A DNA stretch of 4,733 nt from a virus (lineage: Duplodnaviria; Heunggongvirae; Uroviricota; Caudoviricetes). This document shows, piece after piece, positions 70 to 4,733 of this stretch (position 1 is its first letter; each line of letters opens with the position of its first letter). The notes below the pieces were generated by a model. That model saw only the letters and a list, made by a program, of their open reading frames with translations, ran no database searches and had not been told where the DNA came from. The translations under genes were made by a program, and so were the position numbers. The stretch lies in the IMG/VR virus record IMGVR_UViG_3300029450_000024. One strand, given 5' to 3'.

Positions 70-225
70 TTACCCTGACGTGCATTGCTCAAGTTTTTTA
101 GCCAGCACAAAACTGGCTTTTTTATAGCCATTGAAAACCAGCCGTAAGTAGCCAGGTGTTGAGCCAACTTTTCCGGCCAACTCGCCCTGCTGTTCTTTGG
201 TTAAAGAGTCCCAATACGCTTTCAT
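70..225 (-). CDS. Cro-like small HTH transcriptional regulator (51 aa), divergent from the repressor gene
   Basis: Minus-strand ATG (rc of 223..225) lies 7 nt downstream of a GGAGG Shine-Dalgarno (rc of 236..240); stop is rc of 70..72. Product MKAYWDSLTKEQQGELAGKVGSTPGYLRLVFNGYKKASFVLAKKLEQCTSG resembles short Cro/YdaS-type HTH proteins. Divergent position opposite a CI-like repressor. The provided ORF (70..528) is longer, but its upstream part runs antisense through the repressor gene and lacks an RBS. Confidence 0.65.
   Translation of the reverse strand: MKAYWDSLTKEQQGELAGKVGSTPGYLRLVFNGYKKASFVLAKKLEQCTSG
99..123 (+). terminator. Terminator-like hairpin plus T-tract on the plus strand, embedded antisense within the cro-like coding region
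   Basis: AGCCAG (100..105) / loop CACAAAA (106..112) / CTGGCT (113..118), with six T in a row at 118..123 (the first is the closing stem base). On the minus strand the stem is followed by A-rich sequence, so it is not a minus-strand terminator. Confidence 0.3.
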
Positions 226-315: not shown

Positions 316-990
316 ATGAAAACAATCCATGACATCCGGCGGTCTAACGCCAGAAAACTGAGAGATGGTGTTGGCGGGAATTCTTCCTTTGCCACTATGA
401 TTGATCGCGAGCCAACCCAGACCAGCAGGTTTATGGGAGATGGGGCTACTAAAAATATCGGTGACAGCATGGCACGACACATCGAAAAATGTTTCGACCT
501 GCCTGTCGGATGGCTCGATCAAGAACACCAGACAACGAACATCACAAAAAAACCTGATGTTTCAATCACTAATAAACAAATCACATTAGTCCCTGTCATA
601 TCATGGGTACAGGCCGGAGCATGGAAAGAAGTTGGATATTCTGAGGTTGATTTGAGCACAGCAGAAACGTATCCCTGCCCTGTACCCTGTGGGGAAATGA
701 CTTATATCTTGCGGGTGATAGGTGATTCAATGATTGATGAGTACCGCCCGGGAGACATGATTTTTGTCGATCCTGAAGTACCTGCCTGCCACGGTGACGA
801 CGTTATTGCATTGATGCACGATACAGGCGAAACCACCTTCAAAAGGTTGATAGAAGATGGGACACAGCGTTATCTCAAAGCGTTAAACCCAAACTGGCCT
901 GAGCCTTACATTAAGATCAACGGTAATTGCTCTATAATTGGTACAGTGATTTTCTCCGGAAAACCAAGAAGATACAAAATCAAAGCCTAA
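316..990 (+). CDS. CI/LexA-like prophage repressor: N-terminal HTH domain plus C-terminal S24 peptidase (autocleavage) domain, 224 aa
   Basis: Intact 224-aa ORF. C-terminal domain carries the S24 signature: a Ser-Lys dyad (GDSM, Ser138 at nt 727..729; FKRL, Lys176 at nt 841..843) and an Ala-Gly candidate cleavage site (VQAG-AW, Ala100-Gly101 at nt 613..618). Divergent from the cro-like gene, with operators between them. Confidence 0.9.
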   Translation: MKTIHDIRRSNARKLRDGVGGNSSFATMIDREPTQTSRFMGDGATKNIGDSMARHIEKCFDLPVGWLDQEHQTTNITKKPDVSITNKQITLVPVISWVQAGAWKEVGYSEVDLSTAETYPCPVPCGEMTYILRVIGDSMIDEYRPGDMIFVDPEVPACHGDDVIALMHDTGETTFKRLIEDGTQRYLKALNPNWPEPYIKINGNCSIIGTVIFSGKPRRYKIKA

Positions 991-1004
991 TCAATGTTTA
1001 TGAA

Positions 1005-1025
1005 CCTGCTTCGGCAGGTTTTTTT
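1005..1025 (+). terminator. Rho-independent terminator downstream of the repressor gene (tImm-like)
   Basis: Stem CCTGC (1005..1009) / loop TTCG / GCAGG (1014..1018), followed by a run of 7 T (1019..1025), 15 nt after the repressor stop codon. Confidence 0.7.
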
Positions 1026-1029
1026 ATAC

Positions 1030-1057
1030 TTGACAATGTACCTTTGAGATACATAAT
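1030..1057 (+). promoter_or_regulatory. PL-like strong sigma70 promoter driving the rightward early operon
   Basis: -35 TTGACA (1030..1035), 16-nt spacer, -10 CATAAT (1052..1057), placed immediately after the terminator. Confidence 0.6.
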
Positions 1058-1073
1058 GTACCCAACCGAAACA
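1036..1073. promoter_or_regulatory. OL-like operator sites overlapping the PL-like promoter
   Basis: ATGTAC-N7-ATACAT at 1036..1054 (one mismatch to the GTACAT half-site) lies in the promoter spacer and -10. A weaker ATGTAC-N7-AAACAA follows at 1055..1073. Confidence 0.45.
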
Positions 1074-1264
1074 ACGAACAGGCAGGACGCCCACGAAGTA
1101 GCCGCCTAGGGCATATGAAGTCCAGGATGATTCGTTGAGTCATGTTGTGCCACCAGGCAATCATGTTAAAGCAGGTGTATGAAATGAAAGTCCAGATTTT
1201 AAACAATAACTGTGAAGTCGTTTGGGCGTAAAACATGACCGCGCGTAGACCAAGGGAGGAAAAA

Positions 1265-1441
1265 GTGGGAATAGTTAGAAATCAAGCAGATATATTGAAA
1301 ATCAGCTCTGAATTACTTGGAGTTTTGAAAAGTGAGCTCACCGCACATGGCATCGAGCCCACTGACGAAAACTTAAGTTGGGTTTTGTCGATTATTCAAC
1401 AATCACTCAAGCCCAGCCTCAGCAAACTTTTTATCGAGTAG
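1265..1441 (+). CDS. Hypothetical small protein (58 aa), first ORF downstream of the PL-like promoter
   Basis: GTG start at 1265, 5 nt after a strong AGGGAGG Shine-Dalgarno (1253..1259); stop TAG at 1439..1441. No recognisable domain and no arginine-rich N-like motif. The provided ORF's ATG at 1235 has no RBS. Confidence 0.4.
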   Translation: MGIVRNQADILKISSELLGVLKSELTAHGIEPTDENLSWVLSIIQQSLKPSLSKLFIE

Positions 1442-1594
1442 TGCTTCGAACTTATCGTAAAGCTTGCTTATGTCGTCTATCGGGTTTTCTGACGTACTGT
1501 AATTTTTATCTGATGTCATGGCAGCAGTCTGATATGCAGTGTGAGTCTTAACCGATAGTTGGAATAAATAAAGAATTTTTTCTTCTTTGGTCAT
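1403..1594 (-). CDS. Hypothetical small acidic protein (63 aa), convergent with and overlapping the 3' end of the 1265..1441 ORF
   Basis: Minus-strand ATG (rc of 1592..1594) preceded by AAGGAAA about 7 nt upstream; the provided ORF's further-upstream start has no RBS. Product MTKEEKILYLFQLSVKTHTAYQTAAMTSDKNYSTSENPIDDISKLYDKFEALLDKKFAEAGLE has no transmembrane segment. Confidence 0.4.
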   Translation of the reverse strand: MTKEEKILYLFQLSVKTHTAYQTAAMTSDKNYSTSENPIDDISKLYDKFEALLDKKFAEAGLE

Positions 1595-1810
1595 AACTAT
1601 TTCCTTCTTGGCTATATGAAAACACCAAGATACCACCGAGCCTGAAGTGGTGAAAAGACAGGCACATAACAGCTAAGTATTTTCAACCAAAGAGAATCCT
1701 TAGCGTTGTGGTGAATGCGGCTCAGCGCACGCGGGTTAAGGTTGAGGCTGACAGTCGACCTTCTGTGGATACCCACCCGTCTGGTGTGCAACCTTCGCCA
1801 GGCACCGGGA

Positions 1811-1831
1811 GGCACCCGGCACCCGGCACCA
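1811..1831. repeat. Tandem heptamer repeat GGCACC(C/A) x3, with a further GGCACC copy at 1801..1806
   Basis: Direct reading: GGCACCC (1811..1817), GGCACCC (1818..1824), GGCACCA (1825..1831), inside a GC-rich non-coding island. Confidence 0.6.
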
Positions 1832-1855
1832 CAACTTTATGCTGTGTGTAGTCCT

Positions 1856-1902
1856 GGCGGTACCAGTTTGTACCCTTGCTTCCGGCTGGTACCGTCCTTT
1901 TT
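1856..1902 (+). terminator. Terminator-like hairpin (tL1-like) upstream of the yfdP homolog
   Basis: Stem CGGTACCAG (1858..1866) pairs with CTGGTACCG (1886..1894), extendable by G1857-U1895 and G1856-C1896; 19-nt loop; then C + TTTTT (1898..1902). Plus-strand only. The long loop makes its efficiency uncertain. Confidence 0.45.
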
Positions 1903-2039
1903 ACAAAACAGAGAAGAGCATCACCGGACGACGGGCTCATAACCCAATCCATCCGGGCGGCTGCCACCGCAGGTGTTCTTCTCTGTTTTGTGGAGAAACT
2001 AATCGGCCTTGCAGGGTCGATATGATGAGGAGCAGCAAA

Positions 2040-2402
2040 ATGGCTAGCGAACGCAGTACTGATGTGCAGGCATTTATCGGGGAGCTGGACGGCGGCGTAT
2101 TTGAAACCAAAATCGGCGCAGTTCTCAGTGAAGTCGCTTCCGGTGTGATGAACACGAAAACCAAAGGTAAGGTCTCACTCAACCTGGAAATCGAACCATT
2201 TGATGAGAACCGTGTGAAAATCAAACACAAACTCTCATATGTTCGCCCGACTAACCGCGGGAAAATTTCCGAAGAAGACACCACCGAAACGCCGATGTAT
2301 GTCAATCGCGGTGGTCGCCTGACTATTCTGCAGGAAGACCAGGGACAGTTACTGACTCTTGCCGGTGAACCTGACGGAAAACTCCGCGCAGCAGGTCGTT
2401 AA
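2040..2402 (+). CDS. yfdP: YfdP-like prophage protein of unknown function (120 aa)
   Basis: ATG at 2040, 6 nt after GAGGAG (2028..2033). The provided 187-aa ORF starts further upstream in GC-rich sequence with a Cys/Arg/Pro-rich, low-complexity extension and no RBS. Assignment is from recalled length and sequence of the K-12 CPS-53 protein and needs BLAST confirmation. Confidence 0.75.
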   Translation: MASERSTDVQAFIGELDGGVFETKIGAVLSEVASGVMNTKTKGKVSLNLEIEPFDENRVKIKHKLSYVRPTNRGKISEEDTTETPMYVNRGGRLTILQEDQGQLLTLAGEPDGKLRAAGR

Positions 2403-2467
2403 TATCGTTTTTAATTAACTGATTATTTATCTCATCACTGAATATCTTTATATAGTGAGGACTTATT

Positions 2468-3292
2468 ATGTCTCAGAACTTAGACGCAACCGCAATTAAT
2501 CAAATCCATGCCCTTATTTCTGCTCAGGGTGTTAATGAAATTATCAGTAAGATTGGTGCCGATGCTGTGGCATTGCCTGAGAATTTCCGCATTCATGATC
2601 TGGAAAAATTTAATTTAAATCGCTTCCGTTTCCGTGGTGCGCTTTCCACTGCCAGCATCGATGACTTTACCCGTTATTCTAAAGATCTTGCAGATGAAGG
2701 CACCCGCTGCTTTATCGATGCTGATAATATGCGTGCCGTCAGTGTGCTTAACCTGGGTACTATTGATGAACCAGGTCACGCAGATAACACCGCCACTCTC
2801 AAACTGAAAAAGACAGCACCGTTCTCTGCTCTGTTGTCTGTTAACGGCGAGCGTAACTCCCAGAAGTCACTGGCAGAATGGATTGAAGACTGGGCCGACT
2901 ACCTTGTGGGCTTTGATGCTAATGGTGACGCCATTCAGGCAACAAAAGCGGCTGCGGCAGTCCGTAAAATCACAATTGAAGCGAACCAGACTGCTGATTT
3001 TGAAGACAATGACTTCAGCGGCAAACGCTCCCTGATGGAGTCTGTCGAAGCGAAGACCAAAGACATTATGCCAGTGGCATTTGAATTTAAATGCGTTCCG
3101 TTTGAAGGCCTGAAAGAACGTCCATTTAAATTACGACCCAGCATTATCACTGGCGATCGTCCTGTACTGGTTCTGCGCATTATTCAGCTGGAAGCGGTGC
3201 AGGAAGATATGGCTAACGAATTTCGTGATCTGCTTGTTGAGAAATTCAAAGACAGCAAAGTAGAAACCTTTATTGGTACTTTCACCGCCTGA
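2468..3292 (+). CDS. yfdQ: YfdQ-like protein (DUF2303 family by recall), 274 aa
   Basis: Long intact ORF; ATG about 7 nt after GTGAGGA. Matches by recall the K-12 CPS-53 YfdQ length and N-terminus ([12 protein letters not shown]...). Confidence 0.85.
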
Positions 3293-3304
3293 TTTCATTA
3301 CTGC

Positions 3305-3330
3305 AAATGCCCCTGCGGGGGCATTTATGG
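3305..3330 (+). terminator. GC-rich hairpin with a weak U-tail between the yfdQ and yfdR homologs (possible attenuator or partial terminator)
   Basis: AAATGCCCC (3305..3313) / loop TGCG / GGGGCATTT (3318..3326), a perfect 9-bp stem, followed by ATGG rather than a clean T-run. Confidence 0.35.
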
Positions 3331-3419
3331 AAACGTAATTAACTCAATAATCACCGGATGGTGAGGGCTTCCTTTTACCCAAACTCAGCGCGGTGCAGCG
3401 CATATACGTGGAGAACAAA

Positions 3420-3956
3420 ATGTCATTTATTAAAACTTTTTCCGGGAAGCATTTTTATTATGACAGGATAAATAAAGACGACATCGTGATTAACGATATC
3501 GCGGTTTCCCTTTCAAATATCTGCCGCTTTGCCGGTCATCTTTCTCACTTCTACAGTGTCGCCCAACATGCGGTGCTTTGCAGCCAGCTGGTGCCGCAGG
3601 AATTTGCTTTTGAAGCGTTAATGCATGATGCAACAGAAGCGTATTGCCAGGACATCCCCGCACCACTGAAACGCCTTCTTCCTGACTATAAACGGATGGA
3701 AGAAAAAATAGATGCAGTAATCCGTGAGAAATACGGGTTACCTCCTGTTATGAGCACGCCAGTGAAATATGCCGATCTCATTATGCTGGCAACCGAACGC
3801 CGTGATCTCGGGCTTGATGATGGCTCTTTCTGGCCTGTACTGGAAGGCATCCCGGCAACAGAGATGTTCAACGTGATTCCACTGGCACCGGGTCATGCCT
3901 ACGGGATGTTTATGGAACGTTTTAACGATTTATCGGAGTTACGCAAATGCGCATGA
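3420..3956 (+). CDS. yfdR: HD-domain phosphohydrolase, YfdR-like (5'-deoxynucleotidase family), 178 aa
   Basis: HD-superfamily motifs: His50 in SVAQHA (nt 3567..3569) and His69-Asp70 in LMHDATE (nt 3624..3629). ATG at 3420 preceded by GGAGA; the GTG at 3393 used in the ORF track has no RBS. Length matches K-12 YfdR by recall. Confidence 0.88.
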   Translation: MSFIKTFSGKHFYYDRINKDDIVINDIAVSLSNICRFAGHLSHFYSVAQHAVLCSQLVPQEFAFEALMHDATEAYCQDIPAPLKRLLPDYKRMEEKIDAVIREKYGLPPVMSTPVKYADLIMLATERRDLGLDDGSFWPVLEGIPATEMFNVIPLAPGHAYGMFMERFNDLSELRKCA

Positions 3957-4309
3957 ATGTTTTCGAAATGGAAGGGTTTCTTCGCGGGAAATGTGTACCG
4001 CGAGATCTGAAAGTGAACGAAACAAATGCTGAGTACCTGGTACGTAAATTCGACGCGCTTGAAGCTAAATGTGCGGCACTGGAAAACAAAATAATACCAG
4101 TGTCAGCTGAACTGCCACCAGCAAATGAAAGTGTTCTGTTATTTGATGCTAATGGAGAAGGCTGGCTGATTGGCTGGCGTTCTCTCTGGTACACCTGGGG
4201 ACAAAAAGAAACCGGAGAATGGCAGTGGACATTTCAGGTTGGGGACCTTGAAAACGTCAATATCACTCACTGGGCAGTTATGCCAAAAGCACCGGAGGCT
4301 GGAGCATAA
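3947..4309 (+). CDS. yfdS: YfdS-like protein of unknown function (120 aa)
   Basis: ATG at 3947 overlaps the yfdR stop (ATGCGCATGA, TGA at 3954..3956); GGAG lies 9 nt upstream. Trp-rich C-terminal half. Recalled K-12 homolog is 120 aa. Confidence 0.8.
   Translation: MRMNVFEMEGFLRGKCVPRDLKVNETNAEYLVRKFDALEAKCAALENKIIPVSAELPPANESVLLFDANGEGWLIGWRSLWYTWGQKETGEWQWTFQVGDLENVNITHWAVMPKAPEAGA
4115..4122 (-). other. Chi octamer (5'-GCTGGTGG-3' on the minus strand)
   Basis: Plus-strand CCACCAGC at 4115..4122, inside the yfdS-like gene. Confidence 0.5.
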
Positions 4310-4614
4310 TGACCACATTTACCAATAAAGAACTGATTAAAGAAATCAAAGAACGAATCAGCAGCCTAGAGGTTCGAGACGATATTGAGCGCCGTGCTTA
4401 TGAAATCGCACTCGTATCTCTGGAAGTAGAGCCAGATGAACGCGAAGCCTATGAATTATTCATGGAAAAGCGTTTCGGTGACTTAGTAGATCGTCGGAGA
4501 GCAAAAAACGGCGATAACGAATACATGGCATGGGATATGACTCTCGGTTGGATCGTCTGGCAGCAACGAGCTGGTATCCATTTTTCAACAATGTCACAGC
4601 AAGAGGTGAAATAA
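4309..4614 (+). CDS. yfdT: YfdT-like protein of unknown function (101 aa)
   Basis: Start ATG overlaps the yfdS stop (TAATG at 4307..4311). Recalled K-12 homolog is 101 aa. Confidence 0.8.
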   Translation: MTTFTNKELIKEIKERISSLEVRDDIERRAYEIALVSLEVEPDEREAYELFMEKRFGDLVDRRRAKNGDNEYMAWDMTLGWIVWQQRAGIHFSTMSQQEVK

Positions 4615-4733
4615 TGGAGCCATACAGCCTGAACCGCCCCGGGTTTCCTGGAGAGTGTTTTATCTGTGAACTCAGGCTGCCAGATCATCGTTTCCGATGG
4701 AAGCATAATAAGCTTTTTCTGCTTCTGCCGGAG
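4614..4733 (+). CDS. Partial CDS (N-terminal 40 codons, continues beyond the window), hypothetical protein with a CxxC motif
   Basis: ATG at 4614 overlaps the yfdT stop (TAATG); GAGGTG Shine-Dalgarno at 4603..4608. Open to the window end: MEPYSLNRPGFPGECFICELRLPDHRFRWKHNKLFLLLPE... Confidence 0.5.
   Translation, partial: MEPYSLNRPGFPGECFICELRLPDHRFRWKHNKLFLLLPE

Follow-up and report, generated by a model that had tools for sequence, protein, structure and literature searches.

The stretch of DNA analyzed here (IMG/VR record IMGVR_UViG_3300029450_000024; 4,733 bases, referred to throughout as the window) is a 100% match to positions 3719153-3723885 of E. coli strain 81 (NZ_CP088131.1), and contains the cluster of genes (yfdP-yfdQ-yfdR-yfdS-yfdT) with which this report is concerned. 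Read from its first base, the window comprises the end of an IS1 insertion sequence (IS), a cro remnant, a cI gene, a terminator, a promoter, a leader of 1 kb, the five yfd genes, the start of the excisionase gene xis and the end of a second IS, within what the RefSeq annotation of strain 81, and of an intact relative in strain M8, describes as a lambdoid prophage at tRNA-Thr, adjoining proA. Positions 1000-4630 align with the orf33-orf28-xis-int region of Shigella phage SfV (~97% identity over 89%), a relatedness of ~97% that extends to SfIV and several Shiga toxin (Stx) 2c phages, and positions 2021-4630 share 98.9% nucleotide identity with yfdP-yfdT of CPS-53, a cryptic prophage of E. coli K-12 MG1655, the encoded proteins being identical to those of K-12 at 118/120 (YfdP), 272/274 (YfdQ), 177/178 (YfdR), 120/120 (YfdS) and 100/101 (YfdT) residues. 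In the intact prophage of strain M8 the order is yfdT-xis-int-tRNA-Thr; in strain 81, xis is split by an IS, after which int and tRNA-Thr follow, so that the operon ends as lambdoid early-left operons do. Judged from its sequence, the window carries the early-left (PL-type) operon of a lambdoid prophage, SfV/CPS-53 in type and now degraded, and the yfdP-yfdT cluster as such is already known, having been named in E. coli K-12 and in SfV. New here are the conserved RNA structures on both sides of yfdP-yfdQ, and the division of the cluster into a conserved core and a variable tail.

The region upstream of the cluster carries the elements of repressor control. The cI-type repressor gene (ymfK; 316-990, plus strand) encodes a protein of the LexA/S24 peptidase family (Peptidase_S24, 92.8 bits; phrog_4, transcriptional repressor; LexA family protein in RefSeq), and its S24 peptidase domain is of the kind present in SOS-cleavable phage repressors. 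Between cro and cI, a pattern search located two operator-like palindromes of the form TGTAC-N7-GTACA (232-248 and 282-298), both at the place where SfV has an annotated ‘putative operator region', while a third copy, with 1 mismatch, lies at 1037-1053; by chance, 0.07 matches would be expected in the window rather than the 3 found. This third copy falls inside the spacer of a PL-like sigma-70 promoter (TTGACA-16-CATAAT; 1030-1057, plus strand), which scores 11/12 in a promoter scan and is the best promoter in the window, and which is preceded by an intrinsic terminator after cI (1002-1021, plus strand), recognized by a terminator scan from its 8-bp stem, UUCG loop and T-run and also annotated as a terminator in SfV. 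Because the palindrome of the cI-cro region recurs inside the promoter, downstream of an S24-type repressor gene, the original prediction of a repressor-controlled early operon, made from the letters of the window alone, is supported by the sequence; the coordinates given in that prediction are likewise correct, the gene overlap sites having been located again in the sequence.

The first two genes of the cluster are yfdP (2040-2402, plus strand; PF27127, phrog_204) and yfdQ (2468-3292, plus strand; DUF2303), the product of the latter matching PF10065 over residues 7-272 with 304.6 bits (gathering score 26.6) and belonging to phrog_210. YfdP homologues from Pseudomonas and Vibrio phages are 48% and 39% identical, respectively. 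A sequence search of the PDB with YfdQ returned entry 9o7m (‘YfdQ Protein'), a 274-residue homologue (E 7e-44) present as 36 chains, which implies a large assembly.

The constancy of the cluster was assessed in 71 loci drawn from a collection with one genome per species, in which YfdQ is 40-99% identical to that of the window; a scan of IMG/VR yielded only loci with 99%-identical yfdQ, and so served for analysis of the variable tail rather than of distant synteny. Directly upstream of yfdQ, yfdP is found in 69 of the 71 species, and yfdR follows within 1.5 kb downstream in 58 of them, usually 55-147 nt after the yfdQ gene, whereas YfdS-like and YfdT-like genes occur near yfdQ in 5 and 4 species only. 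The co-occurrence profiling that had been proposed as a check on the cluster thus reveals no constant yfdR-yfdS-yfdT unit. On these counts, the conserved unit is yfdP-yfdQ, often with yfdR, and yfdS and yfdT are interchangeable accessories of the Ea22 region. According to PMC12315714, the yfdP-yfdQ-yfdR trio is common in lambdoid early-left operons; it also occurs in phages phiNP and Eeyore and in Pseudomonas phage LPPA56, where the homologue of the HD-domain protein YfdR lies one gene further on. Other structured RNAs were seen as well: a strong match to the Rfam RT-15 RNA (172 bits) downstream of the yfdPQ-HD module of LPPA56 (locus L086, 7838-8028), and matches to the C4 antisense RNA and isrK in SfV and phage 2H10, within their early-right regions (L003, 886-1074; L004, 2412-2600).

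Directly after the yfdQ stop codon lies a conserved, terminator-like stem-loop with a short U-tract (3293-3345, plus strand), whose core at 3305-3326 reads AAATGCCCC-TGCG-GGGGCATTT; the GC hairpin noted earlier at this place is therefore real. It is not an intrinsic terminator by the usual test, its tail ATTTATGG having 4 T in 8 nt where at least 5 are called for, and it was not called by the terminator scan. In fact, within the window alone the 136-nt spacer between yfdQ and yfdR is not outstanding (z -1.2 versus dinucleotide shuffles), and it is only by comparison with relatives that the hairpin becomes significant. Every one of the 62 unique 60-nt flanks downstream of a yfdQ stop codon has a folding energy of -13.3 kcal/mol or lower (mean -19.9 kcal/mol; median z -3.9, and z under -2 in 92% of the flanks), as against -4.6 kcal/mol (z +0.5) for control flanks after yfdP and -12.1 kcal/mol (z -0.3) for those after yfdR, with mononucleotide shuffles as the reference throughout. 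The sequences of the stem vary widely among lineages, and when 29 closer relatives are aligned, compensatory double changes appear at 9 of the 16 pairs, while the presence of G-U pairs in the alignment places the structure on the coding strand. The hairpin is kept even where yfdR is missing (loci L098, L100 and L102). From these sequence features, we infer that it could be a weak terminator or a 3' stabilizer that separates yfdPQ expression from that of the downstream genes. A second small hairpin in the same spacer (TCACC-GGAT-GGTGA, then GGG; 3351-3364, plus strand) recurs in phiNP and Eeyore with an altered stem (CGCC/GGCG), as judged from the three sequences compared.

On its other side, the yfdP-yfdQ pair is preceded by a leader RNA (1856-2021, plus strand) that is both structured and conserved and lies immediately before yfdP. 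It is composed of a terminator-like hairpin (1856-1896), a long stem of ~25 bp (1898-1995) flanked by the conserved sequences TTTTTACRCA and GTGTGGAGAAAC, and finally a small hairpin (2002-2021). Positions 1840-2045 of the window fold at -92 kcal/mol (z -5.6 versus dinucleotide shuffles), and in 86% of 65 unique homologous loci a similar degree of structure is seen over the 200 nt that precede yfdP. In the long stem and small hairpin, 95.4% of cells are paired (26 sequences/species), compared with 30-61% pairing in slid controls, and 51 cells show double changes versus 13.2 in shuffles, none of the 500 shuffles reaching 51. No Rfam family matches the leader RNA at 1856-2021, save for a sub-threshold match, ending at the first hairpin, of a relative of the STnc100 prophage small RNA family (RF02076; 1683-1904, plus strand), which itself ends in a terminator-like hairpin; this match has 30 bits (E 2e-4 to 8e-4), and that of the SfV copy 39.5 bits, both below the gathering score of 47. 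The leader RNA, as predicted from the sequence, could be a processing site, a 5' stabilizer or an attenuator. A ‘frameshifted hypothetical protein' annotated by RefSeq at 1708-2025 in many genomes is more likely a non-coding RNA. In K-12 the leader RNA is absent, homology beginning at 2021.

Further upstream, the leader contains two convergent small open reading frames (ORFs) with overlapping 3' ends, at 1235-1441 (plus strand; phrog_15476) and 1403-1594 (minus strand, annotated in RefSeq; phrog_2605), both in PHROGs of unknown function. The plus-strand ORF, the first after the promoter, occupies the position that N holds in lambda but does not look N-like; an N-like antiterminator at this site was considered and is not favored, as the ORF lacks both an arginine-rich motif and a family annotation. 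The antitermination RNA of the HK022 put type is similarly not favored as the identity of the leader, putL showing no likeness to it on reading by eye.

The third gene, yfdR (3420-3956, plus strand; phrog_318), encodes an HD-domain phosphohydrolase, whose predicted metal residues H50, H69-D70 and D128 (H...HD...D) align with those of the HD protein Atu1052 (PDB 2gz4; E 1e-13), and are invariant among homologues down to 38% identity, the level of a Pseudomonas phage homologue. The HD-domain assignment of the original prediction is hence sound, the motif being intact, but its placing among the 5'-deoxynucleotidases finds no backing in the curated models: YfdR scores 19.9 bits against the NCBIfam YfbR model NF003009 (cut-off 122) and 24.3 bits against the YfbR-like Pfam family PF12917 (gathering score 25.9). 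As the cut-offs of the curated YfbR family are missed, the name ‘5'-deoxynucleotidase' that RefSeq gives to YfdR is overstated. The name appears to have been carried over from the naming of K-12 genes. The corresponding PHROG (318) bears the name ‘deoxyribonucleoside 5' monophosphate phosphatase', which suggests a candidate link to the phage T5 deoxynucleotidase Dmp. In the literature, YfdR is presented as structurally homologous to the 5'-deoxynucleotidase YfbR, though its affinities for nucleotides are far lower, and as having weak phosphatase activity on nucleotide monophosphates (PMC4776307); activity on cytidine monophosphate (CMP) is cited in a further source.

The tail of the cluster consists of yfdS (3947-4309, plus strand), with an Ead/Ea22-type N-terminal segment and a C-terminal DUF551 domain, and yfdT (4309-4614, plus strand), a variable accessory gene of phrog_660. 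The N-terminal ~45 residues of YfdS match the start of the Ea22-like p35 of HK022 and of many genes of Stx phages and P22-like phages, while the DUF551 match (PF04448, residues 50-117) is marginal, with 22.2 bits for a cut-off of 22; one published source places YfdS among DUF551 proteins and relates it to one variant of Ea22. An H2O2-sensitivity phenotype has been reported for YfdS, together with redundancy with YfdT (the latter, PMC4776307). Paralogy of YfdS and YfdT as the cause of this genetic redundancy was rejected (BLASTP E 0.33).

The genes from yfdR onwards are joined by overlapping stop and start codons: ATGCGCATGA at 3947-3956 contains the yfdS ATG (3947), a second ATG (3953) and the yfdR TGA (3954-3956), and TAATG forms both the yfdS stop/yfdT start (4307-4311) and the yfdT stop/xis start (4612-4616). 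From these overlaps it had been argued that translation is coupled and that the products probably form a complex, and the two parts of this argument fare differently. Since a GGAG or GAGG Shine-Dalgarno motif lies inside the upstream gene before each overlapping start, translational coupling is plausible, and the overlaps probably do provide it, as far as sequence can tell. A complex does not follow. In the intact prophage of strain M8, overlaps of 1-44 nt join 18 of the 35 other pairs of neighboring genes on the same strand (a count made from the annotation table), and among 80 viral contigs with 99%-identical yfdQ, the gene after yfdR has a YfdS-like N-terminus in 61, is an unrelated gene for a 292-aa protein joined by the identical -10 overlap junction in 9, and is a different short ORF in another 9. 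Furthermore, published pull-downs suggested that neither YfdR nor DnaA is bound with high affinity by YfdQ, YfdS or YfdT (PMC4776307). The overlaps are ordinary phage operon compaction, uninformative on complexes, and given their generic nature, the variability of yfdS and yfdT and the negative pull-downs, a dedicated YfdR-YfdS-YfdT complex is not favored.

Both ends of the window are formed by insertion sequences. At 1-73, the end of IS1 truncates the prophage on the cro side (the RefSeq IS1A transposase ends just before, and IS-free genomes match from 74), cutting the 3' end of a cro/YdaS-like helix-turn-helix (HTH) gene (73-225, minus strand) that has weak HTH_3 and phrog_35 ‘transcriptional repressor' matches; intact relatives have a 200-nt ymfT/cro gene at this position. 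At the other end, alignment with the M8 prophage and SfV identifies 4614-4630 (plus strand) as the first 17 nt of xis, joined to the end of an IS3-family element at 4631-4733, where IS-free homology stops at 4630 and a RefSeq IS3 family transposase follows. The ‘further ORF' that had been counted as another small unknown protein is consequently this xis start fused to the IS end. In the source genome the rest of xis resumes beyond the element, with a gcc target duplication and a matching inverted end. With its remnant bracketed by two insertion sequences, the cro-like gene being cut and xis split, the prophage is defective and probably unable to excise normally.

The view that a function was not established for the cluster is out of date, as a replication phenotype was published in 2016 for proteins that are 98-100% identical. 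Noguchi and Katayama (2016) obtained yfdQRST as genes that, in multicopy, suppress the hda-185 mutant, which over-initiates; overexpression of yfdQ and yfdR together with yfdS or yfdT blocked initiation at oriC, extracts containing YfdQRST inhibited oriC replication in vitro, and YfdR bound domain I of the initiator DnaA via Phe46, competing moderately with DiaA and DnaB (PMC4776307). Taken together with the arrangement of the window, these data favor, with a probability of roughly 0.55, a repressor-controlled early-left operon in which YfdR hinders DnaA, the initiator of the host, and also makes use of its HD phosphohydrolase chemistry. An SOS-cleavable cI-type repressor would act, beyond the terminator after cI, on the promoter that contains the cI-cro operator palindrome. 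The transcript would run through the 1-kb leader, yfdP-yfdQ and the conserved stem-loop into yfdR, yfdS, yfdT, xis and int, with xis broken here by the IS, and upon induction the operon would hold back initiation on the host chromosome, as a host-takeover module. Within it, yfdP-yfdQ would be the conserved core, with flanking RNA structures that probably give it an expression separate from that of the downstream genes, yfdR a frequent partner, and yfdS and yfdT the interchangeable accessories. That phosphohydrolase chemistry has been retained is probable and that it is used is suggested by the conservation of the catalytic residues; for this activity as for the interference with DnaA, a physiological role is putative.

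Several observations weigh against this interpretation. Deletion of yfdQRST was without effect on initiation, the phenotype being seen on overexpression only, and the authors themselves allow for an overexpression artefact (PMC4776307). YfdR relatives are present in 337 phage records (YfdQ in 184), and many of the phages that carry them are large lytic phages (of Caulobacter, Bacillus and other hosts) without yfdQ, yfdS or yfdT, so that DnaA binding is not a general function of the YfdR family. The operon model leaves the roles of YfdP and YfdQ unassigned, and AlphaFold2 models of the two proteins (pLDDT 71.5 and 77, respectively) gave no informative structural neighbors. Lastly, three terminator-like hairpins (after cI, at 1856-1896 and after yfdQ) stand between the promoter and yfdR, no N-type antiterminator was found in the window, and read-through from the promoter at 1030-1057 to yfdR is assumed from the layout of the sequence.

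The same evidence can be read with YfdR as mainly a nucleotide-pool enzyme, a phage (deoxy)nucleoside monophosphate phosphatase acting early in development whose DnaA binding is a side effect of overexpression. We regard this as a tentative alternative, appreciably less probable than interference with DnaA: the invariance of the HD residues to 38% identity, the name given to PHROG 318, the abundance of the family in lytic and jumbo phages that lack the other yfd genes and the reported phosphatase activity on nucleotide monophosphates, CMP included, all speak for it, but a yfdR knock-out reportedly left the CMP yield unchanged, the misses to the YfbR models mean that the real substrate may differ, and the genetic need for yfdQ plus yfdS or yfdT is left unexplained. 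Attention may instead be directed to the more conserved pair of genes, yfdP-yfdQ, which, with or without yfdR, may serve phage DNA replication, recombination or repair as an accessory module, YfdQ building a large assembly, as the 36 chains of PDB 9o7m would have it. In Vibrio phage 36E38.1 the pair occurs without yfdR, with genes for an Erf-like annealing protein and for RecE-like and DnaQ-like exonucleases on one side and that for the single-stranded DNA-binding protein SSB on the other, and in Stx phage PA2 the pair follows RecT and an exonuclease; moreover, a yfdQ deletion was reported to be weakly sensitive to methyl methanesulfonate and H2O2 (PMC4776307), and, according to a preprint, YfdQ production triggers plaque formation by SW1, another lambdoid prophage. 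The proximity of genes is, however, weak evidence, since early-left operons carry recombination genes anyway. The trio also occurs in phages whose recombination module is complete and separate, and its genes were considered improbable candidates for recombinases (PMC12315714). We regard this explanation as unlikely.

More doubtful still is a version in which yfdP-yfdQ, conserved in prophages of Enterobacterales and as far as phages of Pseudomonas and Vibrio, is a self-contained two-gene cassette, bracketed by two RNA structures outside Rfam (the leader of ~170 nt and the stem-loop on the yfdQ stop), with YfdQ as a large assembly and YfdR as its usual partner, that would constitute an uncharacterized host-takeover or counter-defense module with the replication initiator or nucleotides as its target. 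Least probable of all, and in our estimation very improbable, is the proposal that came with the original prediction, namely a complex of the translationally coupled YfdR, YfdS and YfdT, together with YfdQ, whose HD enzyme would break down immune signals derived from nucleotides or work against host defense in some other way. The location of the genes in an early operon, in a variable region beside xis where accessory genes accumulate, would suit such a role, as would the overlapping codons with their internal Shine-Dalgarno motifs and the requirement for yfdS or yfdT alongside yfdQ and yfdR in the published phenotype (PMC4776307). Against it stand the pull-downs, the rarity of yfdS and yfdT beside the module (5 and 4 of 71 species), the recurrence of the same junction before an unrelated gene in nine loci, and the fact that YfdS and YfdT are mutually unrelated yet genetically interchangeable. 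The nearest sequence relatives of YfdR are, besides, HD proteins of the monophosphatase type. No support was found for degradation of nucleotide-derived signals or anti-defense activity, either in PADLOC, which covers defense systems only and returned no match for the seven window proteins, or in the literature on YfdR, where no link to defense was found.

As a cluster, the genes of the window add little to what is known, being a rediscovery of named K-12/SfV genes for which an overexpression phenotype and a DnaA binder were published in 2016. What the analysis contributes is the distinction between a core (yfdP, yfdQ, the 3' stem-loop, usually yfdR, and the structured leader) and a tail (yfdS, yfdT), which guides the choice of the genes and RNA elements to delete first, and the finding that the ‘5'-deoxynucleotidase' label stands on weak grounds. 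Compared with the K-12 prophage CPS-53 (KplE1), in which yfdP-yfdT (b2359-b2363) show the same gene set, order and overlaps, the window retains the cI-PL-leader region, has the IS1 and IS3-family insertions and is located at thrW, whereas CPS-53, at argW with the torI excisionase, has lost everything more than 19 nt upstream of yfdP, including the repressor, promoter and leader RNA. The early-left operon of SfV (orf33, orf32-orf28, xis, int) shares the cI gene, terminator, gene order and STnc100-like element, but belongs to a complete, functional phage with intact xis and cro, and its leader partly differs between the promoter and ~1700, where the alignment falls into two BLAST pieces. At the level of individual proteins, YfdR resembles YfbR in its HD fold, its H...HD...D metal site and a weak local similarity over residues 41-104, and differs in falling below both family thresholds and in its much lower reported nucleotide affinities. 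YfdS shares with lambda Ea22/Ead (Ea22 variant V2 with DUF551) the N-terminal segment, the C-terminal DUF551 domain and the position just upstream of xis, though it is much shorter, at 120 residues.

Kil and Gam provide the lambda PL operon with host-takeover functions. With that operon the window has in common a promoter with a cI operator downstream of cI, an end in xis-int and a product that hits a replication initiator, but there is no sequence relation, and no N protein or nut site was found in the window. In a comparison drawn by the authors of the 2016 study, lambda P, likewise an inhibitor of DnaA, was reported to act at domain III of DnaA, whereas YfdR acts at domain I (PMC4776307). 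In its use of DnaA Phe46, YfdR is like E. coli DiaA and DnaB, and like SirA of B. subtilis, which uses the equivalent Phe49; DiaA and SirA are nevertheless unrelated to YfdR, a phage-borne HD enzyme whose inhibition in vitro is moderate (PMC4776307).

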